The notes beneath the pieces are model-generated. The model was not told where the DNA came from. It searched no databases and saw only the letters and a list, made by a program, of their open reading frames with translations. This document shows positions 1-16,835 of a stretch of DNA of 64,000 nucleotides, in pieces. The DNA comes from Candidatus Kaiserbacteria bacterium (GTDB lineage Bacteria; Patescibacteriota; Minisyncoccia; Phycocordibacterales; UBA2100). The position numbers and the translations under genes were made by a program. Numbering within the stretch: position 1 is the first letter of the stretch; each line of letters begins with the position of its first letter. The stretch is from contig CP070993.1 in assembly GCA_017134395.1 (NCBI GenBank), positions 189,656 to 253,655 on the forward strand. Reading direction: 5' to 3'.

Positions 1-23
1 TGTTTCTTTTTATAGTTCTGAGT

Positions 24-1271
24 GTGATTCTTAGTACATTGTACCCGCCACTTATCGTGGCTGTTCTGACATGGATTTTTATATTGGCTCCACTCTGGGC
101 ACCTGTAGTTCTTGGTACCATATGGTGGTCGCAGTGGATTAAGTATATCCGAGCAAATTTCATTTCTGCTCAGCCACAAGTACTCTTAGAGATAAAACTT
201 CCTCGACAAATTTTAAAAACACCAAAAGCTATGGAGGCAGTTCTTTCTGGGCTCCATGTTGGTCCTGGAGAAACAACGTTTATATCTCGTTCTTGGGAAG
301 GAAAAGTGCGGCCGTGGTGGTCACTTGAGATTGCTTCAATTGAGGGCAAGATACATTTTTATGTGTGGGCGTGGGAAAAACATCGAGATTTTGTTGAATC
401 ACAATTTTATGCACAATACCCAGACATAGAGATTCACGAGGTGGAAGACTATTCTGCAGGTCTAACTTATGACCCAAGCAAAAATAATGTATGGGGAATG
501 GAATATAAACTTGCTAAAGACGATGCCTATCCAATCAAATCATACATAGACTTCGAACTCGACCAAGATCCAAAAAAAGTCGAACATGTTGTTGATCCAT
601 TGTCAGGTGTGTTTGAAAAGCTAAGCTCATTAGGACCTGGAGAACAAATGTGGATTCAAATTCTCATTCGACAAAATAAAGGCGCCACTATCGATCATAC
701 GTTCGGACGTCGAACTAAATCGTGGAAAGACGAGGCTCAAGAAGAGATTGAAAAAATTTACAAAGACTCAAAGCCGCAGGAAATCGATATCGCTACCGGA
801 GAGATTACTGAAGGGAACTACCCACTCTTAAAACCAGCACAAGTAAACACAATCAAGGCACTCGAACGCAGTGTTGATAAGCAAGGATTCGATGCAGGCA
901 TACGGGCGGTGTACATAACAAAGCCAGATGTCTTTAAGGGAAACAAAATTCCTACAAACATAGTTAATCTTTGGAGCACATTCGGTTCTGGCCATTTAAA
1001 TAAATTCGTTCCGGGTAATACATGGCATGTATCGCTTGATTATCCATGGCAGGATTTTAAAAATATGCGCGCTGCACATTTTTCACACCGTATACTTGAT
1101 GCGTACCGTCGCAGAAGCCTCTTCCATCCACCCTACGAGCGGCCTCGATTTGTACTCACAACCGAGGAGTTAGCAACTATTTATCATTTCCCAACAGAAG
1201 AAACAAAAGCGCCTGGAATCCAACGGATATCATCCACCAAAGGGGATGCGCCAACAAACCTTCCAACATAG
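24..1271 (+). CDS. hypothetical membrane protein. N-terminal TM helix. GTG start at 24, but the frame stays open to the window edge, so it may be 5-prime partial.
   Basis: 415-aa ORF with a hydrophobic N-terminus (LIVAVLTWIFILAPLWAPVVLGTIWW). No recognisable catalytic motif. Confidence 0.45.
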   Translation: MILSTLYPPLIVAVLTWIFILAPLWAPVVLGTIWWSQWIKYIRANFISAQPQVLLEIKLPRQILKTPKAMEAVLSGLHVGPGETTFISRSWEGKVRPWWSLEIASIEGKIHFYVWAWEKHRDFVESQFYAQYPDIEIHEVEDYSAGLTYDPSKNNVWGMEYKLAKDDAYPIKSYIDFELDQDPKKVEHVVDPLSGVFEKLSSLGPGEQMWIQILIRQNKGATIDHTFGRRTKSWKDEAQEEIEKIYKDSKPQEIDIATGEITEGNYPLLKPAQVNTIKALERSVDKQGFDAGIRAVYITKPDVFKGNKIPTNIVNLWSTFGSGHLNKFVPGNTWHVSLDYPWQDFKNMRAAHFSHRILDAYRRRSLFHPPYERPRFVLTTEELATIYHFPTEETKAPGIQRISSTKGDAPTNLPT

Positions 1272-1302
1272 TATGTTTGAGCACTATAAAGAAAAACTAA
1301 AA

Positions 1303-2343
1303 ATGTCTTTTGAACGTCTGTATGTTCGTTTTATATCACATCACGAGAGTGTAAGTGATGCAGTGTACGATTGGCATGACACACGACTAGACAACTTAAA
1401 CCGGCGAACATTCGTTATACTCGCAATTGGTTTAATTTTTGTATCTGTACTGTACGTAGAAAGTTTTCATCCAACGGATGATTTTCCTATTGAACAGTAC
1501 ATAACAATTGAAGAAGGGGAAACGTTGCAATCGCTTGCCCAAGTACTAGAAGACGAGGACATCGTACGAAGCGCCCACTGGTTAGAAATTCTTGTTCGGC
1601 TCCGTGGTGGACAACATTCAGTTCACGCCGGAGATTATCTGTTTGCAAAGCCAGTCGGAGCGTTTTCGGTAGCACGCATTATTACCACTGGAGCGTACGG
1701 TCTTGAGCCAATTAAAATCACTATTCCTGAAGGGGCTACTGTTGCCGATATGGCAATCATTTATGACAGGCGGCTCTTCAAATTCGATGCAGACAAGTTC
1801 CTCCGCGATACGAATGATCTTGAAGGCTACCTTTTCCCCGATACGTATCATTTCCTTCCGAATGTTCGTGAAGATGAAGTAATCCGTGTAATGCAAGATA
1901 CATTCCAATCGCGTATTGCAGAGTTTGAAGACGACCTTGCTGAATCTGAGTATTCGCTTCATGAAATAATTACACTCGCTTCTATTATTGAGAAAGAAGC
2001 GTGGAAGCCAAAAGACCAAAAACTTATATCTGGCGTACTACACAATCGTCTCGACGACGGTATGCGCCTTCAGGTGGATGCAACGTTTACATACACGCAC
2101 GACAAGGGTACCTATGACATAACACTCGCTGAACTCAAAGACGAGGAAAACCCCTACAATACATACGTGCATAAAGGACTCCCACCCGGACCAATTGCGG
2201 CAGTTGGTGAATCTGCAATAAGCGCAGCGTTGAGACCAACACCAAGTAGTTTTTATTTCTATCTCGCTGACCGTACTGGAACAACCTACTTCAGCGCAAC
2301 GTACGCCGAACATCTTGCAAAAAAACGAGTATACGTTGACTAA
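1303..2343 (+). CDS. mltG: endolytic murein transglycosylase MltG (YceG-like). Start taken at MSFERLY; the track ORF begins at 1246 and overlaps the upstream gene.
   Basis: N-terminal TM segment, YceG-like body with a GLPPGPI motif, and a C-terminal FYFYLADRTGTTYFS block typical of the MltG/YceG family. Confidence 0.75.
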   Translation: MSFERLYVRFISHHESVSDAVYDWHDTRLDNLNRRTFVILAIGLIFVSVLYVESFHPTDDFPIEQYITIEEGETLQSLAQVLEDEDIVRSAHWLEILVRLRGGQHSVHAGDYLFAKPVGAFSVARIITTGAYGLEPIKITIPEGATVADMAIIYDRRLFKFDADKFLRDTNDLEGYLFPDTYHFLPNVREDEVIRVMQDTFQSRIAEFEDDLAESEYSLHEIITLASIIEKEAWKPKDQKLISGVLHNRLDDGMRLQVDATFTYTHDKGTYDITLAELKDEENPYNTYVHKGLPPGPIAAVGESAISAALRPTPSSFYFYLADRTGTTYFSATYAEHLAKKRVYVD

Positions 2344-2374
2344 GTAGAGGTGGTTATATATTCTCCTCATACCT

Positions 2375-3427
2375 ATGAAAAAAGTTTTTGTTGCACTTTC
2401 AGGTGGCGTCGATAGTTCAGTTGTCGCTCACATATTACAAAGCCAAGGGTGGGATGTTACCGCGGTTTTTATACGTGTGTGGCAACCTGATTTCATGCCC
2501 TGTACCCAAGACGAAGAAGAACGCGCGGCACTTCGTGTCGCAGCATCACTCGGTATACCATTTCGACGCCTTGACCTCTCTGACGAATATAAGAAAGGTG
2601 TCGTTGATACAATGATCTCAGAATATCGTGCGGGGCGTACACCAAACCCTGATGTGCTGTGTAATGCTGAGATAAAATTTGGTGCATTTCTTAAATACGC
2701 CAAACGTGAAGGAGCTAACAAAATAGCAACAGGTCACCACGCTCGTGTACATACGTCTAATGATACATACACACTCCTACGTGGGGTTGATGAAACTAAA
2801 GATCAAGCGTATTTCTTATGGAAACTCACTCAAGAAGAACTGAGTCATACGTTGATGCCAGTTGGTGAAATGTCTAAGACAGACGTTCGAGAATATGCAG
2901 AAAAACACGCGCTTCCAAGTGCACACAAACCTGATAGCCAAGGGCTCTGTTTTATTGGTCACGTTGATATGAAAACGTTTCTAAAAAACTTCATCGAAGC
3001 AAAGTCAGGACGTGTGCTGGATGAAAACGGAAAAACAATCGGAAATCACGAAGGTATTGAATTCGTTACTCTTGGACAACGAGGGGGGTTCACCATTACA
3101 GACAAAGACGCTCATGGTCGCGTGTACTATGTTGTACAAAAAGATGCAGCAGCTAATACAATTACTGTTTCTACCCAACAGAACACTATCGACACAGAAA
3201 AGGTGGAGATAAAACTTACCGATACCAACTGGCTTATGCCAATTGTGTCTTCAAAAGAATATACGTGTGAAATTCGCTACCATGGTCTACCTATTGTGTG
3301 CACGGTAGAAATAACGGGAGAACATGAAGCACGTGTGCATACAACTACTCCAATCCTCGTAGCAAAAGGACAATCTGTTGTCGTGTATGAAAAGGATGTC
3401 TGCTTCGGCGGAGGAGTGGTTGCCTAA
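2375..3427 (+). CDS. mnmA: tRNA-specific 2-thiouridylase MnmA
   Basis: PP-loop motif SGGVDSS; RTPNPDVLCN and IATGHHARV motifs match the MnmA/TrmU family. Confidence 0.85.
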   Translation: MKKVFVALSGGVDSSVVAHILQSQGWDVTAVFIRVWQPDFMPCTQDEEERAALRVAASLGIPFRRLDLSDEYKKGVVDTMISEYRAGRTPNPDVLCNAEIKFGAFLKYAKREGANKIATGHHARVHTSNDTYTLLRGVDETKDQAYFLWKLTQEELSHTLMPVGEMSKTDVREYAEKHALPSAHKPDSQGLCFIGHVDMKTFLKNFIEAKSGRVLDENGKTIGNHEGIEFVTLGQRGGFTITDKDAHGRVYYVVQKDAAANTITVSTQQNTIDTEKVEIKLTDTNWLMPIVSSKEYTCEIRYHGLPIVCTVEITGEHEARVHTTTPILVAKGQSVVVYEKDVCFGGGVVA

Positions 3428-3481
3428 TTTTATACACGCGAAAAAATGTAATATTTTTCTCTTCGCGTATAATCAGCCTAT

Positions 3482-4327
3482 ATGGCTACATTAATTACAA
3501 AGATGAACGGTGAGCAAGAACCGTTTAATCCAGAAAAACTAGACCGTTCACTTGCACGCGCTGGAGCCTCAGCAGACATACGCAAAAAGATTGTCCAACA
3601 CGTAGTCGAGACAATTCATGATGGCATAACGACACAAGAAATTTACCAACATGCTTTCGATTTGCTTCGCACAGAAGAACGACAACCAGTTGCGGCTCGC
3701 TATTCAGTAAAACGTGCCGTATTAGATTTAGGGCCTTCTGGATTTCCATTTGAACAGTTTGTGGCTGCAATTTTTGAATCGATGGGATATACGGATGTAC
3801 AAACAGGAGTTGCTGCACAAGGAAAGTGTGCACCGCACGAAGTTGACGTCATGGCTGAACACCAAGGAAAACGCATTGCCGCTGAAGTAAAATTCCACAA
3901 CAGCCTTGGTATCAAAACAGATTTAAAAGTAGCTCTCTATGTAAAAGCTAGATTTGATGACCTAACTAATAAGGGACGTGCTGTTGATGAAGGGTGGCTT
4001 ATTACAAATACACGGTTTACTCGTAATGCAGCGCGCTTTGGAAATTGCAGTAACATGCATTTGTTGGGCTGGGACTACCCGCGAGGTCGTGGACTTGAAG
4101 TTCTTATCGACCAAGCGGGGGTACACCCAATTACCGCACTCACTTCTATTAATCAAACAGAGAAACGAGCATTGCTTGATGACAACATTGTCTTATGTCG
4201 ACAGATGCCAAACACTGATGAAGACATGGCGCGCTATGGGATACATGGGGACAACCAAGAAGCTGTTCGCGAAGAGGTGAATGGGCTTTGCACTATCCCA
4301 AAAGTTACACCCATGACAGCACAGTAA
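3482..4327 (+). CDS. ATP-cone domain protein fused to an Mrr-like (PD-(D/E)XK) restriction-endonuclease-fold domain
   Basis: The N-terminus (NGEQEPFNPEKLDRSLARAGASADIRKKIVQHV) resembles the NrdR/RNR ATP-cone. The central part carries a D...E-V-K signature (HEVDVMAEH...RIAAEVKF) typical of the Mrr catalytic fold. Confidence 0.55.
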   Translation: MATLITKMNGEQEPFNPEKLDRSLARAGASADIRKKIVQHVVETIHDGITTQEIYQHAFDLLRTEERQPVAARYSVKRAVLDLGPSGFPFEQFVAAIFESMGYTDVQTGVAAQGKCAPHEVDVMAEHQGKRIAAEVKFHNSLGIKTDLKVALYVKARFDDLTNKGRAVDEGWLITNTRFTRNAARFGNCSNMHLLGWDYPRGRGLEVLIDQAGVHPITALTSINQTEKRALLDDNIVLCRQMPNTDEDMARYGIHGDNQEAVREEVNGLCTIPKVTPMTAQ

Positions 4328-4349
4328 TTAATCGCTACAATACACATAT

Positions 4350-4877
4350 ATGACAAAAATAATTGGAAGCTTTGGGGTAGGATTCGTTCTTGGACTTATT
4401 ATAATTTTAGGATGGAATGCCTATACTGATGCACGTTTAGAAAAAGCGCCAGGACAGACAACAGCACCAGACTCAATCCCTGCAGAGGCGATTGCCCCTA
4501 CAATAAACACCCAAGACGGTGACCCAGTAGCAAACGAAGAAATAACTGCAGCTACACCTTCGGAATATATAACAGTAAACGACCAATCTGCTGGGAGTGC
4601 AGTAACCGTTAGTTTTGCAACACTTTCAGCAAACGGCTGGATTGTAGTACACGAAGAGAGAAATGGATTTATCGGAAATGCGCTTGGTGCTAAGCGAAAA
4701 GATGCCGGTACTCACCAAAATACTGTTATTCCACTTTTGCGTGATACACAGGAGAATACTCGTTACTGGATTGTTCTCTATAGCGATGACGGTGATAAAC
4801 AGTTTAATCTTTCTACCGATTTTCCACTTCGAAATACTGAAAACGACCCAATTACTAGTTCATTTCAGGCACAATAA
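4350..4877 (+). CDS. hypothetical membrane-anchored or secreted protein
   Basis: N-terminal TM/signal-anchor (IIGSFGVGFVLGLIIILGW) followed by a Thr/Ala-rich linker. No known motif. Confidence 0.4.
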   Translation: MTKIIGSFGVGFVLGLIIILGWNAYTDARLEKAPGQTTAPDSIPAEAIAPTINTQDGDPVANEEITAATPSEYITVNDQSAGSAVTVSFATLSANGWIVVHEERNGFIGNALGAKRKDAGTHQNTVIPLLRDTQENTRYWIVLYSDDGDKQFNLSTDFPLRNTENDPITSSFQAQ

Positions 4878-4879
4878 GT

Positions 4880-5380
4880 ATGTTCTTCGAATTTGATCCA
4901 ACTCTTTTCACTATCTTTTTTCAGCTCACCCTTGCCGCAGTGCTCGGGCTCATTCTTGGTGCTGAACGATCTATCGCCGGAAAAAGCGCCGGAATGCGAA
5001 CATTTGCGCTTGTATCACTTGGTGCCTGTTTGTTTACCGTTATTTCTATTCTTATAACAACAGAATACTTTGGGAAGGTAAACTTTGATCCAATGCGTGT
5101 TCCTGCAGCTATTATTACTGGTATTGGATTTATTGGTGCAGGTCTTATTATGTTTCGCCAAAACCTCATGCGCGGATTAACAACAGGTGCAGGTATGTGG
5201 ATTGCCGCTGGAGTAGGAATGGGAGTTGGCTTTGGCTTATATGCCATCGCAGCATACACAACAGCTTTAACACTCTTCATCTTCACTGCTGTATGGTTTA
5301 TCGAAGCAAAATTGAAAGTACACTTTGGTCGGCATAATGTAGAACCGATACGCGGTACTGAGGGCGAGACAGAAGAATAG
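4880..5380 (+). CDS. MgtC/SapB family membrane protein
   Basis: Motifs LAAVLGLILGAERS...GMRTFALVSLGACLF...ITGIGFIGAGLIM are characteristic of the MgtC family. Confidence 0.75.
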   Translation: MFFEFDPTLFTIFFQLTLAAVLGLILGAERSIAGKSAGMRTFALVSLGACLFTVISILITTEYFGKVNFDPMRVPAAIITGIGFIGAGLIMFRQNLMRGLTTGAGMWIAAGVGMGVGFGLYAIAAYTTALTLFIFTAVWFIEAKLKVHFGRHNVEPIRGTEGETEE

Positions 5381-5386
5381 AAAGGT

Positions 5387-6211
5387 ATGTCTTCTTTTTA
5401 TAAACCTCATCGAAAAACAGATTGGAACTACGGTGGCCCGCGATGGAGATTGTCTCGATCAAAAATAGATCTTTTTGTATCGTGTCCTCGCTGTTTTTAT
5501 ATAGACAACAAATTAGGAACTGCACGTCCTCCAGGCTTTCCATTTAACCTTAACTCAGCAGTTGATGCTCTATTTAAGGTTGAGTTTGATTTGCATCGTA
5601 AGGCTCAAACACCACACCCGATTATGGAAGAGTACGGTATCGACGCCGTGCCATTTCAACACGCGGACATAGACGAGTGGCGCGAAAACTTTAAGGGTGT
5701 TGCCGTGTTGCATGAGCCAACGGGCTTTACTGTTTCAGGGGCGGTAGACGATGTGTGGGTAAACAAAGAAGAGGAGTTATTCGTTGTTGACTATAAATCA
5801 ACAAGTAAAGACGAACGCATAGACGCACTCGACCAAGACTGGCATGATGGATACAAACGACAGATGGAGATATACCAGTGGCTGCTTCGACAAAAAGGCT
5901 TCACTGTTTCTAACACTGGATATTTTGTGTACGCAAACGCACGAAAAGACAAAGAAATGTTTGATAATCGCCTTGATTTTGAGACAACCCTCATTAGCTA
6001 CGATGGAAATGATAACTGGATTGAACAAACTCTCGCCAACATACAACTATGTCTTGATGATCCACGGATTCCGAAAGCATCAACTGAATGCGATTACTGC
6101 ACATACCGTGAAGCAGTTGGGACTGTTGTACTCAAAAACAAAGAAGCCCGCACAAGTACCAACTCACCAAAAGAAATACCGAAACAGAAAAAGAATGATA
6201 CGCTTTTTTAG
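5387..6211 (+). CDS. PD-(D/E)XK nuclease family protein (RecB/Cas4-like fold) with four Cys, possibly an Fe-S cluster
   Basis: Motif II/III VVDYKSTSK, a QhxxY-type motif (QMEIYQWLL), N-terminal CPRC and C-terminal CDYC cysteines. Confidence 0.6.
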   Translation: MSSFYKPHRKTDWNYGGPRWRLSRSKIDLFVSCPRCFYIDNKLGTARPPGFPFNLNSAVDALFKVEFDLHRKAQTPHPIMEEYGIDAVPFQHADIDEWRENFKGVAVLHEPTGFTVSGAVDDVWVNKEEELFVVDYKSTSKDERIDALDQDWHDGYKRQMEIYQWLLRQKGFTVSNTGYFVYANARKDKEMFDNRLDFETTLISYDGNDNWIEQTLANIQLCLDDPRIPKASTECDYCTYREAVGTVVLKNKEARTSTNSPKEIPKQKKNDTLF

Positions 6212-6212
6212 T

Positions 6213-6482
6213 ATGACCAAGAATGTTGCATTTTCAGAAAAAGTAAGAGATGTAGTGCGCGCTATACCGAAAGGGGAAGTGCGAACCTATAAAGAAGTAG
6301 CGATTGCAGCTGGTTCACCTCATGCTGCACGCGCCGTAGGTACTATAATGCGGAACAACTATCTTGAGGACGTACCGTGTCATCGAGTTATTCGTTCAGA
6401 TGGTGGTTTAGGTGGCTACAATCGAGGTGGCGTTGCAAAAAAGAAAGAACTTCTTACTCGCGAAGGATTTTATAAAAAATAA
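6213..6482 (+). CDS. MGMT-family protein: a stand-alone methylated-DNA-protein-cysteine methyltransferase C-terminal domain with a PCHR active-site motif
   Basis: Sequence MTKNVAFSEKVRDVVRAIPKGEVRTYKEVAIAAGSPHAARAVGTIMRNNYLEDVPCHRVIRSDGGLGGY. It is the in-frame tail of the track ORF 5844-6482; an ATG at 6213 immediately follows the upstream stop. Confidence 0.65.
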   Translation: MTKNVAFSEKVRDVVRAIPKGEVRTYKEVAIAAGSPHAARAVGTIMRNNYLEDVPCHRVIRSDGGLGGYNRGGVAKKKELLTREGFYKK

Positions 6483-6485
6483 ACA

Positions 6486-6572
6486 CCACCACAAGAGTAC
6501 TTCACTATTTCTAAACACTGCGTATTAAGAAAAATGAACGCCTCAATTGACTGAGGCGTTCATTCATTTTGC
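6486..6572 (+). repeat. repeated roughly 85-nt element, copy A: a conserved 45-nt core (GAGTACTTC..TATTTCTAAACACTGCGTATTAAGAAAAAT) followed by a terminator hairpin
   Basis: About 75-80 percent identical to 41884-41962 over the whole length and near-exact over the core. Hairpin GAACGCCTCA-ATTGAC-TGAGGCGTTC then a T-run. Sits directly after the MGMT stop. Confidence 0.75.
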
Positions 6573-6606
6573 CCATTAACCACGGTGTTTCCTGCCGTTT
6601 TTGTCT

Positions 6607-7887
6607 CTATACTTTTAAAAGCTTCAAAAACGCTTTTTCGTCTGTGTGAGGACCAATGATTGTCAGGTTTAGGTTCTCTGTTTTAAACAAATCTTTTGCA
6701 ACCTTGAGCAGTTGTTGTGCCGTGACCGCATCTACTTTTTTATTGAACGCATCGAGGCCACTTTTCTTACCACGCACAAGTGCTGTGTACCCAATAAACT
6801 GTGCCTGTGCGTCCGTAGTATCAAGAGACAGGGCGAATGTTCCTTTTACGTACTCTTTTCCTTTTTGTAGCTCTTGTGATGTCACAGCTTTTTTAGTTAT
6901 CTTCTTCAATTCTTTCACAATCATAGCGATAGCGTCGTGTGCACTGATGTTTGCAACTCCCGCTCGCATGTAAAAACTTCCGACATCACTGTACACATCA
7001 TTTTCTGCGCGCACGTAGTAGGCAAGCCCTCTCCTTTCACGAACTTCACTAAAAAGCCTACTCGACATACCGCCTCCTAAAATTGCAGCGAGCACTTCGG
7101 CTGCTGCTTCATTCGCATGGTCAAACGGATATGAGGGTACTGATATCACAAGGTGTGTTTGGTCGGTTTTCTTCTTTTTTATATTCACGCGAGGTTCATG
7201 TTGCTCCTCTTCGTACGGAGCACATTCAGGAGTCTCGCCAACTCTCATGTTCTTAAATAGTTTCTCTGCTTCTTTGAGAACCTGTGTCTTAGAGAAAGAA
7301 CCAGCAATACACAGTGCTGAGTTACTCGCCACATAGTTTCGATTAAAGTATTCAGTGAACTGCTTTCGTGTAAATGAAAGAATGTTTTTCTTTGGCCCAA
7401 GGATAGTTCGCCCCAATGGGTGGTTCGCACCAAACAACGTAATGTCGGCATCATCTAACACTGAGCGCATTGGCATGTCTTCGTACATATTAATCTCTTC
7501 GACAACCGCACCTCGTTCTCGTTTTATTTCTTCTGGTGGCAATGTTGGATTCAGGAAAATATCTGAAATAACACTCAACGCAGTACTAATGTGCTTCTTA
7601 TCTACCTTAGCGTAATACGCAGTGTGATCTTTTGACGTAAACGCATTCATTTGCCCACCAACTGCATCTATCTCTTCTGCTATTATCCGAGCACTCTTTC
7701 TGTTCTTTGTGCCTTTAAAAAGCATGTGCTCAAGGAAGTGAGCCATACCGTTTTCTTCTTTTGTCTCATACCGTGAGCCAGTTCCTGTCATCACCATAAC
7801 GGTTACAGACTCTGAGCCGGTTGAAGGTGCGAGCAATACGCGCATTCCGTTTTTTAGTGTATGTGTTTCAAATTTCATAGTCTGCAT
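6607..7887 (-). CDS. M16 family zinc peptidase (pitrilysin/insulinase-like). Start at MQTMKFETH; the track gives 7995.
   Basis: HFLEHMLFKGT inverted zinc-binding motif (HxxEH). An AGAGGT Shine-Dalgarno lies about 7 nt upstream of the ATG at 7887. Confidence 0.8.
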   Translation of the reverse strand: MQTMKFETHTLKNGMRVLLAPSTGSESVTVMVMTGTGSRYETKEENGMAHFLEHMLFKGTKNRKSARIIAEEIDAVGGQMNAFTSKDHTAYYAKVDKKHISTALSVISDIFLNPTLPPEEIKRERGAVVEEINMYEDMPMRSVLDDADITLFGANHPLGRTILGPKKNILSFTRKQFTEYFNRNYVASNSALCIAGSFSKTQVLKEAEKLFKNMRVGETPECAPYEEEQHEPRVNIKKKKTDQTHLVISVPSYPFDHANEAAAEVLAAILGGGMSSRLFSEVRERRGLAYYVRAENDVYSDVGSFYMRAGVANISAHDAIAMIVKELKKITKKAVTSQELQKGKEYVKGTFALSLDTTDAQAQFIGYTALVRGKKSGLDAFNKKVDAVTAQQLLKVAKDLFKTENLNLTIIGPHTDEKAFLKLLKV

Positions 7888-7933
7888 AGCATACCTCTTT
7901 TGCTCAGATTCACAAAAGTGGTATGCTAGAACA

Positions 7934-8158
7934 ATGTTATTTTGGGGATTAACGCTAGGAATTATTGGAAAAATTTTACTCGGTGCAACGGTCATTATGG
8001 TGCACAGTAAGATTACTCACGAGAAACGAATTGACGGGCTTGTCCTTATGGAAATGAAACGAGAAAAGAGGATTGCTCTCTTAGGGATTGCTCTGATGGT
8101 TATTGGGTATGTTCTTGAGCTTACTTTCTATGACTTCCTTGGATTTATATCGTTCTAG
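7934..8158 (+). CDS. small two-helix membrane protein (hypothetical)
   Basis: 74-aa ORF with two hydrophobic helices in a divergent intergenic space. No homology recognised. Confidence 0.3.
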   Translation: MLFWGLTLGIIGKILLGATVIMVHSKITHEKRIDGLVLMEMKREKRIALLGIALMVIGYVLELTFYDFLGFISF

Positions 8159-8182
8159 TGGTACGTTCTTGTAAATAGTGAT

Positions 8183-10075
8183 ATGAATGCAAATGATGTT
8201 CGAACAAAATATTTAGATTTTTTTGCCGCACGTGGACATGCGATTATTCCGTCTGCTTCCATCGTTCCAGAAAACGATCCTACGACACTTTTCACTGGTA
8301 GTGGCATGCAGCCGATGCTTACCTACTTTCTCGGAGAAACACACCCAAAGGGAACACGCATTACCGATTCGCAAAAGTGTTTTCGTGCTGAAGATATTGA
8401 CGACATAGGCGACAATAGGCATACCACTTTTTTTGAAATGCTTGGAAACTGGTCGCTCGGCGATTATTTCAAGGAAGAACAAATTCCGTGGATTTTTGAA
8501 TTCTTAGTAGATGAAATAGGACTCGACCCTAAAAATTTATACGTCACTGTATTTAGCGGTGAAGAAAAGAACAACATTCCAAAAGATGAAGAAACCCCAA
8601 TGCTTTGGAAAAAAGTGTTCGATGAGGCTGGTCTAGATTCAAAGATAGTCGACATGGGATCGCAAGCAGACGGTGCATCAAAAGGAATGCAAGACGGTCG
8701 AATATTCTATTACGATTCAAAAGAAAACTGGTGGAGCCGAGCAGGCGTGCCCGATAATATGCCAGTTGGTGAACCCGGAGGACCAGACTCTGAAATGTTT
8801 TATGATTTTGGCACTGAACATGACACACGTTTTGGCGAGCATTGCCACCCAGCGTGCGACTGTGGACGATTTATGGAGATTGGAAACTCTGTATTCATGC
8901 AGTATGTCAAAAAAGGGGAAGGAGTTTTTGAAGAACTCGAACACAAAAATATAGACTTCGGCGGTGGGCTAGAGCGAATTGTAGCTGCGGCACAAAACAT
9001 GCCGGACGTATTTCTTGCAGTAAGCTCACTTGCGGATATCATTCGCCACCTCGAAAATGCTAGTGGTAAAAAATACGAAGAAGACGTACGAAGCTTCCGT
9101 ATCATTGCCGATCATATTCGTGGTGCACTCTTTATGATAGGAGATGGGGTGCGACCATCCAATACAGAGCAAGGATACTTTGCTCGTCGTCTTATTCGTC
9201 GGAGTGTTCAATATGCTGATGCGTTAGGCATTGCCGAAGGAACATTAGTTGATGCCGTGAGTATTGTTACCAAGTCCTACGAGGAACACTATCCAGAACT
9301 TACAGAAAAAGAGACAGGAATAAAAGAACTCTTTGCTGCTGAAGAAACTAAGTTTCGAAAAACACTGACTAAAGGTATGCGAGAATTCGAAAAACTTGCT
9401 GAAACTGGAACCATAACTGGGGAGCAGGCATTCCTTCTCTTTACCACGTATGGATTTCCTATTGAACTCACTCAAGAACTTGCAGAGCAAAAAGGTATCA
9501 TTGTAGACAGAGATGCCTTCACTACGTTCATGAAGGAACACCAAGCAAAAAGTCGCTCAGGAGCTGAGCAAAAGTTTAAAGGTGGACTTGCTGATCATTC
9601 AGAAGCCACAACAATGCTTCATACGACACACCATATTTTACTTCGCGCATTACAGATTGTTCTTGGAGATCACGTGAAGCAGCGGGGAAGTAACATTACA
9701 AGTGAACGGCTTCGTATTGATTTCTCCCATGATGAAAAAATGACTGATGAGCAAAAAAGTGAAGTGGAACGGATAGTTAACGAACAAATTGAAGCAGGTG
9801 TTCCTGTCATGAAGACAATACTGCCGAAAGAAGAAGCTGAACGGCTTGGAGCTCAAAAGGAATTCGGCCAAAAGTATCCAGACATGGTTAACGTCTATTC
9901 TGTTGGACCCAAAGATGCCACTGAGGGCGACCCAAAAATTGAACAAGCATACTCGCTTGAATTTTGTGGAGGACCACATGTTACAAACACAGGGAACATC
10001 ACCGGGGTATTTCGTATCCAAAAAGAGCAAGCATCTTCAGCAGGAGTACGTCGCATTAAGGGAGTACTTGAATAA
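8183..10075 (+). CDS. alaS: alanyl-tRNA synthetase, short form (catalytic, tRNA-recognition and editing domains; no C-Ala domain)
   Basis: N-terminal FTGSGMQPM...CFRAEDID...FFEMLGNWS class II AlaRS motifs. Editing-domain HTTHHILLRAL and CGGPHV. Only 630 aa. Confidence 0.85.
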   Translation: MNANDVRTKYLDFFAARGHAIIPSASIVPENDPTTLFTGSGMQPMLTYFLGETHPKGTRITDSQKCFRAEDIDDIGDNRHTTFFEMLGNWSLGDYFKEEQIPWIFEFLVDEIGLDPKNLYVTVFSGEEKNNIPKDEETPMLWKKVFDEAGLDSKIVDMGSQADGASKGMQDGRIFYYDSKENWWSRAGVPDNMPVGEPGGPDSEMFYDFGTEHDTRFGEHCHPACDCGRFMEIGNSVFMQYVKKGEGVFEELEHKNIDFGGGLERIVAAAQNMPDVFLAVSSLADIIRHLENASGKKYEEDVRSFRIIADHIRGALFMIGDGVRPSNTEQGYFARRLIRRSVQYADALGIAEGTLVDAVSIVTKSYEEHYPELTEKETGIKELFAAEETKFRKTLTKGMREFEKLAETGTITGEQAFLLFTTYGFPIELTQELAEQKGIIVDRDAFTTFMKEHQAKSRSGAEQKFKGGLADHSEATTMLHTTHHILLRALQIVLGDHVKQRGSNITSERLRIDFSHDEKMTDEQKSEVERIVNEQIEAGVPVMKTILPKEEAERLGAQKEFGQKYPDMVNVYSVGPKDATEGDPKIEQAYSLEFCGGPHVTNTGNITGVFRIQKEQASSAGVRRIKGVLE

Positions 10076-10093
10076 CCTTTACACAGAGCCTAC

Positions 10094-11275
10094 GTGTCGC
10101 TCTACCGAAGCATTGCTATACTAATAGATATGGATGTTCTTTCACTCTTGCAGAAAAAAACATACTCACTTGTTTTTGATATCGGCAGTGCAACGGTTGG
10201 TGTTGCAATAGCGAGGTATTCAAAAGGTAAACCTATACACATACTGTTTACGCACAGAGAACTCATACAGTACGGTGAGACACAAGGTGCTACTGCATTG
10301 GGAAACTACCTTGCAGATACTATTGAAAAGGCTGGGAGCAAGGCACTCGAAGCATTAGGTACATTAGGTGATCGAGATATTTCGTACTCTCTGTACGCCT
10401 TTGCTCACGCTCCATGGGCACACACACGTGCGCAACACGTTGAAGGAAATCTCCAAAGTGAAGTCCCAATTACCAAAGAATTGCTGCAACAATTTATGGC
10501 AAAAAAAATGCCTGTTTCGAAAGTCCAAGGGAGGACGCAACTCGAAAGACATATAACCAAGATTACCCTGAATGGATATCCGACACTCGATCCGTACGGA
10601 AAAAAAGCAACACACATTGCAATAACTGCACTGGAAAGCGATGTGTCAGATGTTGTCCACAATTCAATATCTAATGCATTTCAAAATGTATTTCCAAATC
10701 ATCGTGTGAGTCTGGACTCTTTTCTTTTTGCCGCCACTCACTTACGAGAGTTTTTTGAGAAATCAGATACCTATACAATGATGGATATAAGTGGTGAATA
10801 TACTTCCTTGAGCATCATTCGCGACGACACTATTGCTGCAAGTACCTGGGCTGGATTTGGGACCGAGTATCTTATACGGTCATTGCTTACCGGAGAAAAA
10901 ACTGATAGGCAAAGTGTCGTATCAGAACTCGCTATGTACATTGATAATACATGTACCCCATCTCAGTGCAGAAAAATTGAAACTGCGCTTGTAAGCACTG
11001 AACAGGAGTGGGTAAAAGCATTCGGTGATGCTTGCGCAACTTTGAGCAAGCACTCCCGAATTCCAACCCGAGTATATATATCAGTTGATACTCGTTATGG
11101 AAAATGGTTTAAGACAGTTATTGAAAAAATTGATTTTGCTCATTTCACCATTACCGGGAAGCCTCTTCAAGCACATATTTTAAACCTTGATAGGACACAA
11201 AAGCCCATAAAATATAAAGAGGGAGTGAAACAAGATACTGTATTGGCTTTAGGGGTGTTGTTTGTGGATAAATAG
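10094..11275 (+). CDS. actin-like (ASKHA) ATPase family protein, FtsA/PilM-like
   Basis: Phosphate-1-like VFDIGSATVGVAIA and phosphate-2-like MMDISGEYTSL motifs. Specific function is not resolvable by eye. Confidence 0.4.
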   Translation: MSLYRSIAILIDMDVLSLLQKKTYSLVFDIGSATVGVAIARYSKGKPIHILFTHRELIQYGETQGATALGNYLADTIEKAGSKALEALGTLGDRDISYSLYAFAHAPWAHTRAQHVEGNLQSEVPITKELLQQFMAKKMPVSKVQGRTQLERHITKITLNGYPTLDPYGKKATHIAITALESDVSDVVHNSISNAFQNVFPNHRVSLDSFLFAATHLREFFEKSDTYTMMDISGEYTSLSIIRDDTIAASTWAGFGTEYLIRSLLTGEKTDRQSVVSELAMYIDNTCTPSQCRKIETALVSTEQEWVKAFGDACATLSKHSRIPTRVYISVDTRYGKWFKTVIEKIDFAHFTITGKPLQAHILNLDRTQKPIKYKEGVKQDTVLALGVLFVDK

Positions 11276-11324
11276 GCACTTTTGGATGACGTGTTTATCG
11301 TTTTTATTGGTATACTAAACAGAT

Positions 11325-12683
11325 ATGGGAAGAGCTATTTTTGATGATATCAAACCACCAGAGGAAAGTGGTAACAACGATGACACTGCCTCAGCTGCAG
11401 ACCACTCAATACGAAACGTAGCACCTCTGGAAACACAAGAGCGAGAAACTCGACGTGCAAAGCGCGCAGAGCGCCGAAGAGTTCCTGAAGTGTTTGAAGG
11501 AACTACTGCAAAAAAACGATCAAGTGCACGTGGGATTATTACAAAGTATGGTGTATGGGCATTAGCTGTTGTAGTTCTTGCATTAGCACTGTCAGTTGTT
11601 GGCTTTGTCTTTATTGGTAAAACAACGATAGACATCGTACCTCAACAAGATGCTGTAACTCTTTCATCAAACATTGTGTACACGGCATATAAAGATGCTG
11701 AGGATGGGGAATTACAATATGCAGTTATCACACACACTACAGAGGCAACCGAAACAATTACCGCAACAGGCAGCGAGACAGTAGAAGAAAAGGCGTCAGG
11801 TAAAATAATTGTTTACAACAACCATAGCTCAGCATCGCAACGCCTCATTAAAAACACTCGCTTTGAAGCGCTAAACGGTGAGATTTATCGAGTACGAAAC
11901 TCAATAGTCGTTCCGGGTAAGAAAAGCGATGGAACTCCAGGAACTATCGAAATAACAGTTCATGCGGACAAGGCAGGTGAGGGTCAAAATATTACTGCGA
12001 TTGGTTCAAAGTTTACTATTCCAGGCCTTAAGGGCGATCCACGATACGATACATTTCATGCAGAATTAAGTGCTCCAATCATAGGAGGTTTTGTCGGAGA
12101 ACGTGCAATTGTAGATGAGGATGTTCTTAACGCAACACAGACAAAACTGCGAGGACAATTAAGGGACGCGGCACTGGCAACAACGCAAGAGCGTATATCA
12201 GACACTATGGTGTTCTTTGGAGAAAACTCTCTTTTTACTTCTTTCGAATCAGCACCGGTAACATATACGAATGATAACGAAGCACTCGTTCGAGAAATTA
12301 TGTACACTCATGCAGTAGTCTTTAACGAAAACGAACTCGCCCGTATGCTTGCATCCGCTGCACTTGCAACGCCAAACGACGGGGAGATATTGATCGACAA
12401 CCCTGATGATCTTTCTATGACTATCGTTAACAAGGATGGTGTCGACATACAAAATGATGCACTTATACAATTCACTTTCGAAGGGAGAGCTGCTCTAACA
12501 TGGCAGGTGGATACAGAATCACTAAAGCAAGATCTTGTTGGCAAAAACAGTGAAGCCTTAAATACTGTTATGAGTGGATATCCCGGAATAAAGAGTGCAC
12601 AAGCAACAATTAGACCATTTTGGAAGAGTGAATTCCCATCAGAAACGGCTGGAATATCAGTCGAACTACACCCGGTAAACTAA
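11325..12683 (+). CDS. bitopic membrane protein: basic disordered N-terminal tail, one TM helix, large extracytoplasmic domain (hypothetical)
   Basis: RRAKRAERRR tail, TM helix WALAVVVLALALSVVGFVFIG, then a roughly 350-aa domain with no motif. Immediately downstream of the actin-like ATPase. Confidence 0.45.
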   Translation: MGRAIFDDIKPPEESGNNDDTASAADHSIRNVAPLETQERETRRAKRAERRRVPEVFEGTTAKKRSSARGIITKYGVWALAVVVLALALSVVGFVFIGKTTIDIVPQQDAVTLSSNIVYTAYKDAEDGELQYAVITHTTEATETITATGSETVEEKASGKIIVYNNHSSASQRLIKNTRFEALNGEIYRVRNSIVVPGKKSDGTPGTIEITVHADKAGEGQNITAIGSKFTIPGLKGDPRYDTFHAELSAPIIGGFVGERAIVDEDVLNATQTKLRGQLRDAALATTQERISDTMVFFGENSLFTSFESAPVTYTNDNEALVREIMYTHAVVFNENELARMLASAALATPNDGEILIDNPDDLSMTIVNKDGVDIQNDALIQFTFEGRAALTWQVDTESLKQDLVGKNSEALNTVMSGYPGIKSAQATIRPFWKSEFPSETAGISVELHPVN

Positions 12684-12784
12684 TTCTTAGTAGTATTTTC
12701 TCTATTTTTAGCACATCTCGTCTGACTGGCGCAGATGCCAAAATAATCTAGCTTTACTCTTTATCCACAATACGGCAGAAGGGC

Positions 12785-12813
12785 TTGTCAAAATGAGTAC
12801 ATTCTGTTACGAT
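12785..12813 (+). promoter_or_regulatory. putative sigma70 promoter upstream of infA (TTGTCA-N17-TACGAT)
   Basis: Hexamers read directly from the sequence with 17-nt spacing. Confidence 0.35.
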
Positions 12814-12824
12814 AGCGCAGCACT

Positions 12825-13046
12825 GTGAGTGAAGATACCAATGAAAACAAAGATATTGTAGAGGGAGTTGTCGTAGAGGCACTGCCGAACGCACTTTTTC
12901 GTATTGAACTCAAGAACGGTGAAGAGGTAATTTCTTACCTTGCAGGTAAGATGCGTTTGCATCGAATCAAAGTTTTACTCGGTGATACAGTTCAAGTCAA
13001 AGTTGATCCGTACGGTGGTAGAGGAAGAATCGTGAGACGTGGTTAA
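12825..13046 (+). CDS. infA: translation initiation factor IF-1 (GTG start)
   Basis: Classic S1-like IF-1 sequence (EGVVVEALPNALFRIELKNGEEVISYLAGKMRLHRIKVLLGDTVQVKVDPYGGRGRIV). Confidence 0.9.
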   Translation: MSEDTNENKDIVEGVVVEALPNALFRIELKNGEEVISYLAGKMRLHRIKVLLGDTVQVKVDPYGGRGRIVRRG

Positions 13047-13066
13047 TCGTCCACATTTTTTAATTA

Positions 13067-13181
13067 TATGAAGGTTAAAAGTTCAGTAAAAACACTCTGT
13101 AAAGAATGCAAGCACGTTCGCCGTCGTGGACGCCTTTTTGTCATTTGTAGCAACCCACGACATAAACAACGACAAGGTTAA
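13067..13181 (+). pseudogene. rpmJ: 50S ribosomal protein L36 gene with an apparent +1 frameshift near its 5-prime end; either an assembly error or genuinely disrupted
   Basis: Frame 13071-13181 encodes [36 protein letters not shown], a clear L36 zinc ribbon. The only ATG (13067) is in another frame, and removing one G from the AAAAGG run (13077-13082) restores [10 protein letters not shown]. Confidence 0.6.
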
Positions 13182-13194
13182 TTTTTAATATACT

Positions 13195-13575
13195 ATGCGA
13201 ATATCTGGTATCACAATCCCTGACTCAAAGCGTCTCGAAATCGGCCTCACCGAAGTTTTTGGTATTGGACGCGTTCGCGCAGAACGAATTCTTACTGAAG
13301 CAAAAGTTGATTTCGGAAAGAAACCTACAGAATTAAGCGCAGATGAGGAAAGCAAAATCTCGGAATTAGTAACTGCACACAACATTGAAGGGGAACTGAG
13401 ACGCGATATCAGTGGAAATATAAAGCGTTTGAAGGACATAAAAAGCTACCGAGGTGAACGACACTCACGTAACTTACCTTCACGAGGACAACGAACAAAG
13501 ACAAACTCGCGTAGTGTTCGAGGAAACGTTCGAAAAACTATGACGAGTGGTCGCCGTAAAGTAGATAAGAAATAA
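13195..13575 (+). CDS. rpsM: 30S ribosomal protein S13
   Basis: MRISGITIPDSKRLEIGLTEVFGIGRVRAERIL... is a canonical S13. Confidence 0.95.
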   Translation: MRISGITIPDSKRLEIGLTEVFGIGRVRAERILTEAKVDFGKKPTELSADEESKISELVTAHNIEGELRRDISGNIKRLKDIKSYRGERHSRNLPSRGQRTKTNSRSVRGNVRKTMTSGRRKVDKK

Positions 13576-13576
13576 T

Positions 13577-14011
13577 ATGGGTAAGAAACGAATTGTTAAA
13601 AAGTCAGGTGGTACTGTAAACAAGGGATTGCGATCTCGAGCACTCGGAAACTCACCGAAGCGAAAAATGCTTTCTGGTATTTTGTACGTTCAAGCAACAT
13701 ACAACAACACGAAAGTACAGCTTACTGATGGAGAGGGTAACTCTGTTATGTGGTCATCTTCAGGCGCACTTGGTTTTGCAGGAGCAAAAAAGGGAACTCC
13801 TTTTGCAGCTGCGAAAGTAGGTGAACTTATTGCTGAAAAGGCACAGACAATGGGATTGAAATCAGTAGACGCTATCATTAAAGGAGTTGGCGCAGGACGT
13901 GAATCAGCTCTTCGGGCGTTCGCCGGAAAAGGTATCGACATTACTAGTATCTCAGACCAGACACCTGTTCCATTTAACGGTCCTCGTCAACGTCGTCCAC
14001 GCCGTGTCTAA
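13577..14011 (+). CDS. rpsK: 30S ribosomal protein S11
   Basis: Canonical S11 core (GTPFAAAKVGELIAEKA...VKGVGAGRESALRA). Confidence 0.95.
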   Translation: MGKKRIVKKSGGTVNKGLRSRALGNSPKRKMLSGILYVQATYNNTKVQLTDGEGNSVMWSSSGALGFAGAKKGTPFAAAKVGELIAEKAQTMGLKSVDAIIKGVGAGRESALRAFAGKGIDITSISDQTPVPFNGPRQRRPRRV

Positions 14012-14025
14012 TACACAATATTTTT

Positions 14026-14628
14026 ATGTTATCTAAACCAAAATACAAAATCTGTAAACGTCTCGGTAATGGAGTTTACGAGAAATGTCAGACAGAAAAA
14101 TTTGCTCTTTCTGAAGCTCGTGTAAAGAAAACCTTTAAACGAAGAAAAAACTTAAGTGACTTTGGACGTCAGTTACTTGAAAAGCAAAAAGTACGATATG
14201 CCTACGGAATTACTGAGAAACAACTTCGGAAGTATGTAGAAAGTGCAGTACGAACGAAGGAACCAGCAGCAGAACTTTTCAAAGGACTAGAAACTCGATT
14301 AGATAACACAGTATACCGATTAGGATTCGCGCCAACACGTCGCGCAGCGCGACAAATGGTTAGTCATGGTCATGTTACCGTAAACGACAAGAAGATGACC
14401 GTTCCGTCACACATTGTAAAAACAGGTGACACAATCTCAGTTCGAGAAGCAAGCAAGATAAAACCTTTGTTTGTTGGAAACATGGATACTATTACTAAAC
14501 ACACGGCACCAAAGTGGCTTGCGGCAGACTCGAAGAAGCTTACTTCATCAGTTAAGGCAGCGCCGGAATACAGTGCCACAGATTCAATCTTTGATTTCCC
14601 AGCCGTATTCGAGTTCTACAGTCGATAA
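14026..14628 (+). CDS. rpsD: 30S ribosomal protein S4
   Basis: PKYKICKRLG N-terminus and an S4 RNA-binding domain (LDNTVYRLGFAPTRRAARQMVSHGHVTVN). Confidence 0.95.
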   Translation: MLSKPKYKICKRLGNGVYEKCQTEKFALSEARVKKTFKRRKNLSDFGRQLLEKQKVRYAYGITEKQLRKYVESAVRTKEPAAELFKGLETRLDNTVYRLGFAPTRRAARQMVSHGHVTVNDKKMTVPSHIVKTGDTISVREASKIKPLFVGNMDTITKHTAPKWLAADSKKLTSSVKAAPEYSATDSIFDFPAVFEFYSR

Positions 14629-14661
14629 TATTAATTCATTAGTAATTTTAAACCTATTTGT

Positions 14662-15636
14662 ATGTCAGATCACCAAGTAACAGTCCCCTCAAAACCACGC
14701 GTTATAGATGAAAAGGATTTCGCAGGTACTTACGAAATCAATGGTTTATACCCCGGCTACGGGCACACACTCGGCAACTCCCTTCGCCGAATCATTCTTT
14801 CATCACTTCCAGGTGCTGCTATTACGCATGTAAAGATTGATGGTGTTTCTCATGAATTCTCAACTATTGAAGGAGTTTCAGAAGACACAGTAATGCTTTT
14901 ACTTAACCTTAAACGTGTACGAATTAAGATGCTTACTGAAGAACCGCAGGTTTTACGGTTACGTGTAAAAGGTCCAAAATCAGTTACTGCTGCGGACTTT
15001 GAAGTTCCTGGCCAAGTTGAAATTTTAAACCCAGAACAACATATTGCCGAAGTATCAGGAAAAATAGACTTCGATGTTGAAGTGACTGTCGAGAGAGGTT
15101 TGGGATACGTTGCAAAGGAAGTACATCAGAAGGAGAGAGTAGACATTGGAAGTATCGCACTTGATGCAATTTTCTCACCAATCCGGCGAGTTAATTACGA
15201 AGTCGAGAATATGCGTGTCGGTGATCGTACAGACTTCAACCGATTGCGTGTATTCATCGAAACTGATGGAACAATTACTCCACGAGAAGCGCTTGAAGAT
15301 TCAATCGCAACTATGATCCATCAACTTAAGGCGGTGATTGGTTTCCAAGAAGAGACTGAAACACCAGTTGAAGAAACACCGGCTAAAGAAGAAGAGGAAT
15401 CGGAGCCAGTGGAGGACAAGAAAGAAGCTGACAAGGAATCTTTCAAGACTCGGATTACTGAACTCGAACTTTCTCCTCGCGTTGAAAGCTCACTTGATGA
15501 ATCTGGAATCCGTACTGTTGGAGGTCTTGCACGAAAGCACGAAGAAGACATCCTTGCCATCGAAGGGCTTGGTCAGAAGGGATTGCAGGAAATTAAACGA
15601 TCATTATCTAATCTTGGAATTACACTTCGCAGCTAA
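14662..15636 (+). CDS. rpoA: DNA-directed RNA polymerase subunit alpha
   Basis: N-terminal dimerisation domain ([32 protein letters not shown]) and C-terminal CTD ([23 protein letters not shown]). Confidence 0.95.
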   Translation: [324 protein letters not shown]

Positions 15637-15659
15637 TCTGTGTTAGAGTATCGCAGCTC

Positions 15660-16013: not shown

Positions 16014-16014
16014 T

Positions 16015-16380: not shown

Positions 16381-16381
16381 T

Positions 16382-16780: not shown

Positions 16781-16786
16781 AAGAAA

Positions 16787-16811
16787 AGCGACACGAAGGT
16801 GTCGCTTTTTG
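16787..16811 (+). terminator. rho-independent terminator after rpsI
   Basis: GCGACAC-GAAG-GTGTCGC stem-loop followed by TTTTT. Confidence 0.75.
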
Positions 16812-16830: not shown

Positions 16831-16835
16831 CGCCA

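Follow-up and report, generated by a model that had tools for sequence, protein, structure and literature searches.

The 64,000-nucleotide stretch of the Candidatus Kaiserbacteria contig CP070993.1 analyzed here, called the window throughout, holds two look-alike intergenic segments, copy A (6478-6572) and copy B (41880-41971), each made of a short hairpin-forming unit and the remains or whole of a host hairpin. Copy A begins at the stop-codon region of the gene for an 89-aa MGMT-type DNA-binding protein (6213-6482, PF01035), with an M16 peptidase gene of the opposite strand ending towards it. A PNPOx-like gene has its 3' end facing copy B, and the roughly 700 nt upstream of it contain no open reading frame (ORF) longer than 67 aa. 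By sequence comparison, A and B are copies of a family of hairpin repeats of 54-59 nt (about 57 nt) that is dispersed in genomes of the Patescibacteria (candidate phyla radiation, CPR). Loci outside the window are cited by L numbers. The parts of the two copies are as follows.

6478..6487, plus strand: decayed upstream duplicate of the host hairpin 5' arm (AATAAACACC); the TAA of the MGMT-like gene is at 6480-6482; read from window sequence on both sides of the insert
6487..6542, plus strand: copy A of the 57-nt unit; E=1.4e-10 in an nhmmer search using the family profile; 5' box with 0 mismatches
6487-6503, plus strand: 5' box of copy A
6508-6532, plus strand: hairpin of copy A, TTTCT-A-AACAC / TGC / GTATT-A-AGAAA
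6535-6542, plus strand: TGAACGCC, which in copy A replaces the usual 3' box TTGGTCGC
6533..6571, no strand assigned: host bidirectional terminator hairpin AATGAACGCCTCA / ATTGAC / TGAGGCGTTCATT, then CATTTTG; RNA fold z = -4.7
41880..41889, plus strand: host hairpin 5' arm at site B (AATGAACGCC), parted from its partner arm by the insert
41889..41945, plus strand: copy B of the unit; nhmmer E=1.3e-18
41889-41905, 41911-41935 and 41938-41945, plus strand: 5' box, hairpin and 3' box (TTGGTCGC) of copy B
41946..41971, no strand assigned: loop of the site B host hairpin with its degraded 3' arm (TCAATTTATTGAGGTGTTTGTT), then a T-run; from sequence reading and predicted fold

The likeness of the two segments, reported at these places by an earlier sequence-only reading, is borne out by an exact 30-mer, TATTTCTAAACACTGCGTATTAAGAAAAAT, at 6506-6535 and 41909-41938, for which 100 dinucleotide shuffles of the window gave no match. 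A repeat search of the window puts the similarity at 58 nt with 83% identity, and it continues further 5' (AATAAACACCACCACAAGAGTACTTC in A, AATGAACGCCACCGCAGGAGTACTTCC in B), where the differences are all A/G transitions. Because the similarity extends this far 5', the TAA stop of the 89-aa MGMT-like gene lies inside copy A. Downstream it stops after the hairpin and T-run that, as the same reading had noted, follow both copies. The description of both sites as convergent junctions holds for A and only loosely for B, where the closest plus-strand ORF above 67 aa terminates at 40867 and another, of 27 codons, at 41186.

The repeat unit proved shorter than the roughly 85-nt terminator-associated element first proposed. 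An alignment of 29 sequences, the basis of the consensus, resolves it into a near-invariant 17-nt 5' box (CACCACARGRGYACTTC), a hairpin with an A/T-rich stem, and a 3' box, (T)GGTCGC(TC), given in full as TTGGTCGC. In type 1 copies the stem reads CATTRTTTCT-A-AGNGC, a loop of 3-4 nt, and GCNCT-A-AGAAAAATT. The lower stem and the A.A mismatch at its middle are invariant, and the apical tip covaries freely. A covariation check across copies, which the sequence-only reading had suggested, shows four covarying apical pairs (GC 19, AU 8; AU 9, CG 5, GC 5, UA 2; GC 19, AU 5, CG 1; CG 19, GC 5). Their score was reached in 0 of 500 shuffles, slid registers collapse, and mutual information places the same four pairs on top. 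Type 2 copies keep both boxes and the overall length of 54-59 nt around a different stem of 8 A/T base pairs and a loop of 14-17 nt.

Database searches define how far the family reaches. The exact core 20-mer has no match in 185,579 species genomes, so the species representatives do not include the source genome or its subfamily. Scanning metagenomes with the same 20-mer gave one real match, behind an unrelated flavodoxin-like gene in L001, and one chance match (L002). A profile built from three copies then found a weaker relative beside a tRNA-Ser gene in L001, whose stem is changed on both sides and therefore led to a degenerate search pattern, CTTCCATTNTTNCTAAN{11,15}AGAAAAA. Applied to the same 185,579 genomes, this pattern returned 32 loci, about 24 of them clearly homologous. 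All of these lie in Patescibacteria, in metagenome-assembled genomes (MAGs) labelled Kaiserbacteria, Paceibacterota, Saccharibacteria or unclassified 'Patescibacteria group', with up to 5 copies in one MAG. The 8 remaining matches, from other phyla, lack the flanking boxes and were set aside as chance. Family copies score nhmmer E-values of 1e-20 to 1e-10.

No similar sequence was found in phage, plasmid or IMG/VR collections. Rfam 15 gives no family at its gathering threshold for the unit, the window passing for two tRNAs only, and permissive Rfam scans of both copies (E up to 10) return only chance-level matches to microRNA or small nucleolar RNA families. Full-text literature searches turned up no paper describing such an element in Patescibacteria. 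As far as these searches go, the element is undescribed; it belongs to a known kind, the small dispersed intergenic hairpin repeats.

Copies also occur in head-to-tail arrays with a period of 57 nt, as at L022 with 3.3 copies; adjacent copies are found in L020, L011, L033 and L014. The arrays join TTGGTCGC straight to ACCAC. At L022 (1618-1854) the 57-nt array is a multiple of 3 and stays open as a spurious ORF of 78 aa that contains a 19-aa repeat (GRTTRALPLFLRAKALRKI); arrays of this sort may be taken for proteins by gene callers. In L001 (10341-10452, minus strand; the same as L028, about 4173-4284) a diverged unit is fused with duplicated parts of the adjacent tRNA-Ser(GGA), its T-arm and acceptor 3' half. 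The fusion forms a tRNA-like gene of about 105 nt that ARAGORN leaves uncalled and to which Rfam tRNA-Sec gives a score of only 19 bits.

Within the window the 5' box, allowing at most 2 mismatches, has 3 matches against 0.04 expected, and two further members of the family are present.

58865..58920, minus strand: third full copy, type 2, CACTACAGGAGCACTTC - GATTTTTA - TAGTCGCTGCACTTCT - TAAAAATC - TGGTCGT; from box match and architecture
45080..45096, plus strand: solo 5' box (TCACAAGAGTACTTCCA) left as a remnant copy between S41 and rplI, antisense to both genes

The third copy, overlooked by the sequence-only reading, is oriented like tRNA-Trp and lies in the miaA/tRNA-Trp junction, about 245 nt downstream of that tRNA gene; its type 2 architecture recurs in L014, L026, L031 and L036. 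The remnant corresponds to the partial third copy of the sequence-only reading. That partial copy is real and measures 16-17 nt, and its place needs correcting: it occupies 45080-45096 instead of 45078-45094, and rather than overlapping the S41 protease coding sequence it lies in the S41/rplI spacer, ending one base before the S41 stop (45098-45100). Its status as a decayed remnant follows from relatives at 94% identity, which hold a nearly full copy at that site. With three full copies and one remnant in the window, about 24 loci in other Patescibacteria genomes, arrays, and presence or absence at given sites, the earlier suggestion of a small dispersed element stands.

The hairpin with the CTCAATT..TGAGG arms and the T-run, which had been counted as part of the repeat, belongs to the sites instead. 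Comparison with relatives indicates that the unit is inserted into older terminator hairpins at both A and B, at the identical point GAACGCC^TCA. At site A, the relative L005 (M16 peptidase 82% identical) has a spacer of only 49 nt with a plain hairpin, AAATGAACGCCTCA-CTATAG-TGAGGCGTTCATT. This empty site reads AAATGAACGCC^TCA, and the MGMT stop codon, TGA, lies inside the hairpin 5' arm. At site B, L043, from the same genome as L005 and with a slipin 91% identical, keeps an uninterrupted ACGAACGCC-TC..GA-GGCGTTCGT right after the same PNPOx gene; this intact hairpin is written ACGAACGCC^TC..GAGGCGTTCGT with the insertion point marked. Both loci of this relative hold the hairpin without the unit. 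Other relatives differ again: in L006 and L007 (73% identity) the genes at site A overlap, leaving neither spacer nor unit, and the 94% relatives L040 and L044 lack the unit at site B, where their terminator is a different one.

The flanks of copy A add detail to this picture. TGAACGCC flanks the insert on either side; upstream it has decayed to TAAACACC with the stop kept (TAA for TGA). The downstream copy forms a perfect 13-bp hairpin, and the hairpin at 6532-6565, scored with 15 pairs, is the best terminator-like site in 1-20000. On the minus strand, the U-tract of this host hairpin (TTTTTCTT) comes from the AGAAAAA of the unit. The direct repeat at site A is either a target duplication or the product of later terminator repair. 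The sequence-only reading had correctly seen ATGAACGCC after the core in A (6534-6542) and before it in B (41881-41889) and had read this as a hint of a unit able to tandemize; it is the 5' arm of the host hairpin, duplicated around the insert at A, and not the joint of such a unit. For site B, folding predicts that the 5' arm pairs to GGUGUUUGUU and that the host hairpin, split by the unit, is weak. The host hairpin arms were also considered as a repeat family of their own and rejected, since among all DNA examined they occur only at A, B and one L005 site.

Site A appears to be a hot spot. In a 90% relative (L003, L004) a different insert of about 195 nt occupies the same point; this unrelated sequence (L003 2521-2715, also in L004) lies between the same direct repeats (..CTAAACACC / AATGAATGGC..), begins with TGAGTCGC and has two internal palindromes.

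Turnover is visible between closely related genomes. Copies are gained, lost or decayed among genomes whose neighbouring proteins are 82-94% identical. The S41/rplI spacer, which holds only the box in the window, has a nearly full type 1 copy in L040 and L044 (nhmmer E=5e-9), with a 5-nt deletion in the box, and a trace of a copy at most in L043. On the 3' side of the M23 peptidase gene, where the window is empty, L040 and L044 carry a degenerate type 2 copy and L034, whose proteins are 71-81% identical to those of the window, carries a type 1 copy. The 42 kb examined of the L005/L043 genome contain no copy. Moreover, several genomes have subfamilies of their own with extended common flanks: window copies A and B with L017 and L001; L019 with L029 (68 nt); and L030 with L037 (about 130 nt). 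Proliferation from a local master copy would give such a pattern of genome-specific shared flanks. The composite of window copies A and B is also present at non-orthologous loci in another organism.

Across greater distances the unit is strikingly constant. When five copies from other Patescibacteria MAGs are set against window copy B, 39-43 of the 44 positions beyond the apical stem-loop agree; in three of those five genomes the neighbouring cell-wall proteins are 45-81% identical to those of the window, and two are labelled Saccharibacteria.

In their genomic setting, copies lie 3-60 nt past stop codons, between convergent genes or beside tRNA genes, and a divergent-gene spacer holds one once only. 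The flanking genes are unrelated housekeeping genes, with no consistent gene association. Between co-directional genes the plus strand of the unit has the sense of the upstream gene 15 times and is antisense twice, or about 11 against 1-2 when independent loci are counted, both on crude ORF calls. About one copy in five lies within 200 nt of a tRNA gene, and those of L033, L035 and L031 end 0-13 nt before a tRNA 5' end. One copy sits within an ftsW-murG operon; because of this position and because no U-tract follows the unit hairpin, the unit itself is not a terminator. The cumulative GC skew of the window peaks at about 34-36 kb, which we take to be the probable replication terminus. If so, transcription and replication directions coincide in the window, and the orientation bias therefore does not separate a transcript-level rule from a lagging-strand-template rule.

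As for tRNA surroundings, L008 and L031 have the tRNA set Arg(TCG), Gly(GCC), Pro(TGG) and Gly(TCC), of which L018 has the first three. All three loci place a type 1 copy 89-156 nt downstream of tRNA-Gly(GCC), antisense, and L008 and L031 have further copies by other tRNAs.

Taken together, the unit is rather probably a non-autonomous mobile repeat of the kind represented by the repetitive extragenic palindromic (REP) and BOX elements. This reading rests on the dispersed copies, the arrays, the decay and gain between relatives, the same insertion point in both host hairpins, the lack of gene association and the genome-specific subfamilies. The flanks are best read as those of a site-preferring element: nearly every copy has C at the end of its left flank (L039 and L019/L029 being exceptions), and roughly one-third to one-half have (G)TCGC there, in a small sample. 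A trans-acting enzyme would make the copies, reading the hairpin and both boxes, probably on single-stranded DNA, and it would prefer targets like the unit's own 3' end (..TCGC / ..CGCC). The arrays and the frequent GTCGC left flank would both follow from such a preference. Combined with a hairpin that has a conserved irregularity, it makes a single-strand HUH-type mechanism the most natural guess, of peel-and-paste or copy-paste style in the HUH/Y1 class (IS200/IS605, or REP with its REP-associated tyrosine transposase, RAYT). Host effects of individual copies would be incidental. Copy A, for example, would have split a terminator hairpin; a tight hairpin now adjoins the unit, and the unit's A-run would supply the U-tract for the minus-strand M16 peptidase gene.

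Several observations weigh against a mobile repeat. No transposase, RAYT or candidate enzyme lies within 2.5 kb of copies at the eight loci whose ORFs were read (by Pfam scan for the window and L001, by eye for the other loci). Real terminal inverted repeats are lacking, the only candidate being a 4-bp ACCA/TGGT that varies on one side without compensatory change. Target duplications are inconsistent: a direct-repeat search of the first 9 of the 29 copies found one at L010 alone (10 nt, 1 mismatch), the TGGTCGC of L014 belonging to the adjacent copy, and direct reading of the window flanks adds one at site A (8-11 nt, 2 mismatches). At site A, the flanking 10-nt direct repeat could also have mediated a precise loss in L005. 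Additionally, the sense-strand bias is equally predicted by a transcript-level function, and identity at 39-43 of 44 positions is unusually tight for selfish DNA, calling for a very conserved partner, horizontal spread or a host-level function.

These last points lead to a different view, which we regard as possible though doubtful: that the unit may be mainly a functional RNA module on mRNA tails and tRNA precursors, serving processing, 3'-end protection, protein binding or catalysis, its invariant 5' box and mismatched hairpin being bound by a conserved protein or RNA and its multiplicity reflecting repeated recruitment and not selfish spread. The strong sense bias fits, as do the copies abutting tRNA genes, near-invariant unpaired nucleotides kept with a covarying helix and a fixed length in types 1 and 2, and a conservation across differently labelled MAGs far above that of neighbouring proteins, where this is measurable. 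The copy in the ftsW-murG operon indicates that the unit is tolerated in transcripts. Such a function sits poorly with the lack of consistent gene association, the decay or absence of copies at orthologous sites of close relatives, the antisense copies (the remnant at 45080-45096, L036 and L026) and the failure of Rfam to recognize a family even at E up to 10. The wobble evidence is contradictory, plus-strand C.A appearing in about 3 independent events against 1 of G.T. Mobility and an RNA-level function may well be compatible, as REP and BOX show by analogy. Somewhat less likely again, the unit would represent a new class of nucleic-acid module, kept near-invariant across differently labelled Patescibacteria MAGs by a conserved partner, which may be a new mobilizing enzyme; or the transcribed unit may itself be a new functional RNA.

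The box conservation, which persists whatever the hairpin type, might instead reflect a double-stranded DNA site for a chromosome-organizing or recombination protein (nucleoid, gyrase, IHF or Xer-like), present in many copies because the cell needs many sites, as proposed for some bacterial interspersed mosaic elements (BIMEs). The nearly palindromic array junction TTGGTCGCACCA agrees with this, as does the setting of the window, which spans the GC-skew peak and has copy B bordering a variable island there. We nevertheless consider such a site improbable: the pairing-preserving apical covariation points to a folded single strand and not a duplex, copies are dispensable between close relatives, and they show no regular chromosome spacing. 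Hardly credible at all is a local duplication or gene conversion of one terminator region, the outcome that the sequence-only reading had named as its refutation should only two copies exist. A and B do share flanking hairpin arms as well as the unit, but at least 10 other genomes have related copies at non-orthologous loci, the flanks of the third window copy differ, and orthologous sites of relatives keep their hairpins without the unit.

A number of other candidates were tried and rejected. A and B as att sites of a 35-kb island are at odds with an interval that holds alaS, ribosomal protein genes and mur/fts genes at uniform GC. A short ORF or readthrough peptide conflicts with the indel between A and B, the variable loop lengths and stops in two of three frames. 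For a tRNA-like or transfer-messenger-like RNA, ARAGORN finds nothing at L001/L028, the tRNA-Sec score is the 19 bits given above, and other copies have no T-arm, leaving one odd copy that is not ancestral. A template/variable repeat pair of a diversity-generating retroelement, an idea prompted by the A/G transitions, does not suit an element that is non-coding, multi-copy and family-wide. A portable promoter would have only weak -35/-10 look-alikes, and copies at convergent junctions and in operons argue against it.

Among known systems, REP elements and BIMEs offer a close parallel. They are short extragenic hairpin repeats, often at gene 3' ends and in clustered arrays, that can affect mRNA 3' ends and have been proposed to be non-autonomous mobile elements (PMC3184786). 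Like these RAYT-mobilized proteobacterial repeats, the unit is a short, extragenic, multi-copy hairpin found after 3' ends, between convergent genes and in arrays. Unlike REP, its 29-sequence alignment shows no GTAG or GTGG at either end, the ends being ACCAC.. and ..GGTCGC, and its stem is A/T-rich with a conserved A.A mismatch instead of G+C-rich, next to a long unpaired 17-nt 5' box. Its arrays run head-to-tail where those of REP alternate in orientation, and its host range is Patescibacteria. No RAYT flanked by copies was seen (within 2.5 kb at eight loci; window ORFs by Pfam), and, extrapolated from 3-4 copies in 64 kb, the copy number would be in the tens per genome where REP elements number hundreds. 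The REP label proposed earlier is dropped for want of GTAG, no RAYT gene having been seen among the ORFs read either.

Pneumococcal BOX elements are modular, with a middle module that can repeat in tandem, and SPRITE repeats are terminator-like and lie near convergent 3' ends; the mobilizing enzyme of these repeats is unknown (PMC3184786). The unit resembles them in small size, predicted RNA-level structure and position near gene 3' ends, yet shares no sequence similarity with them; its single 57-nt module repeats whole, and its hairpin has no U-tract of its own. With miniature inverted-repeat transposable elements (MITEs) such as Correia/NEMIS and RUP it has in common that it is non-autonomous, shorter than 200 bp, intergenic and rod-like in its stem-loop, with presence/absence polymorphism. 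Unlike MITEs it lacks terminal inverted repeats and consistent target duplications, so that this label, also put forward earlier, does not apply, and no parent insertion sequence is known.

Elements of the IS200/IS605 group use a hairpin with an irregularity and short flanking recognition sequences, need neither terminal inverted repeats nor target duplications, insert at a specific target and show strand bias. The unit shares the hairpin with a conserved irregularity, the short boxes and the strand bias, which makes it a candidate member only. It differs in having one hairpin per unit in place of a distinct left and right subterminal pair, and no TnpA, TnpB or RAYT was found nearby.

An integron attC site was rejected because the R''/R' boxes (RYYYAAC ... 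GTTRRRY) are absent from the consensus, the neighbours are housekeeping genes and no integrase gene is nearby. A clustered regularly interspaced short palindromic repeat (CRISPR) array was rejected because the supposed spacer of L022 is the homologous hairpin itself and most copies are solitary. An intrinsic terminator is likewise discounted: the sequence after the unit hairpin is AAGAAAAAUUGG when read on the plus strand and UAGAAAYAAUGG when read on the minus strand, and the terminators at A and B are the host hairpins. The unit thus lacks defining features of REP, MITE, IS200/IS605-type, attC and CRISPR elements.

Further features of the window lie beside the copies. GC drops to 0.386-0.397 along the 5.6 kb (36298-41880) that separate the M23 peptidase gene from the PNPOx gene; this stretch contains a DUF3800 gene, three ORFs without a Pfam match and small ORFs. 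Copy B forms its right border, and it lies at the GC-skew peak. Relatives hold unrelated content in its place, 1.6 kb in L040 and L044 and 6.9 kb in L043. A 27-codon ORF in this island (41104-41186) encodes a very hydrophobic peptide, MNLADFLIALVILAVIGDIIVMIIQAV, and a clean terminator hairpin follows at about 41216-41260; the product may be a small membrane peptide or toxin-like. Within the ORF-free 41187-41880, a long hairpin, GGAGAGCCTAGCTC ... GAGCTGGGCTCTTTC, at 41762-41850 is kept in L043 (about 12995-13070) though the island differs. It could be a terminator or a small RNA, its Rfam matches being only chance microRNA-like ones.

Near the third copy, two extra tRNA 3'-end fragments (CGATTCTCTCA) lie downstream of tRNA-Trp (59165-59236, minus strand), one inverted at 59099-59126 and one direct at about 58969-58985, together with a perfect 20-bp hairpin at 59119-59162. 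The fragments and hairpin (58960-59190) look like integration or rearrangement scars beside this copy. An A/T-rich palindrome at 58762-58811 has 25-nt arms with 80% complementarity (TAATTACGTAATTAAATAGGTAATT). Elsewhere, long near-perfect palindromes at 39859-39915 (27-nt arms, 96% complementarity) and 44548-44601 (25-nt arms, 100%) look like bidirectional terminators.

Patescibacteria have tiny, streamlined genomes in which repeats and mobile DNA are usually said to be scarce. A repeat common to MAGs labelled Kaiserbacteria, Paceibacterota and Saccharibacteria, 89-98% identical outside the tip, would provide a new marker of genome dynamics in these bacteria. It would also offer a handle for strain typing in metagenomes and a route to a trans-acting enzyme or RNA-binding partner. 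For annotation, the unit matters because it runs over stop codons, interrupts terminators and may be mistaken for short ORFs. If the unit were instead a new nucleic-acid module, its partner may be an enzyme that mobilizes hairpin elements and has no IS200-like or RAYT relative; alternatively, transcribed as part of mRNA 3' ends and tRNA precursors, the unit may act, for example, as a signal for processing, as a protein sponge or as a small ribozyme.

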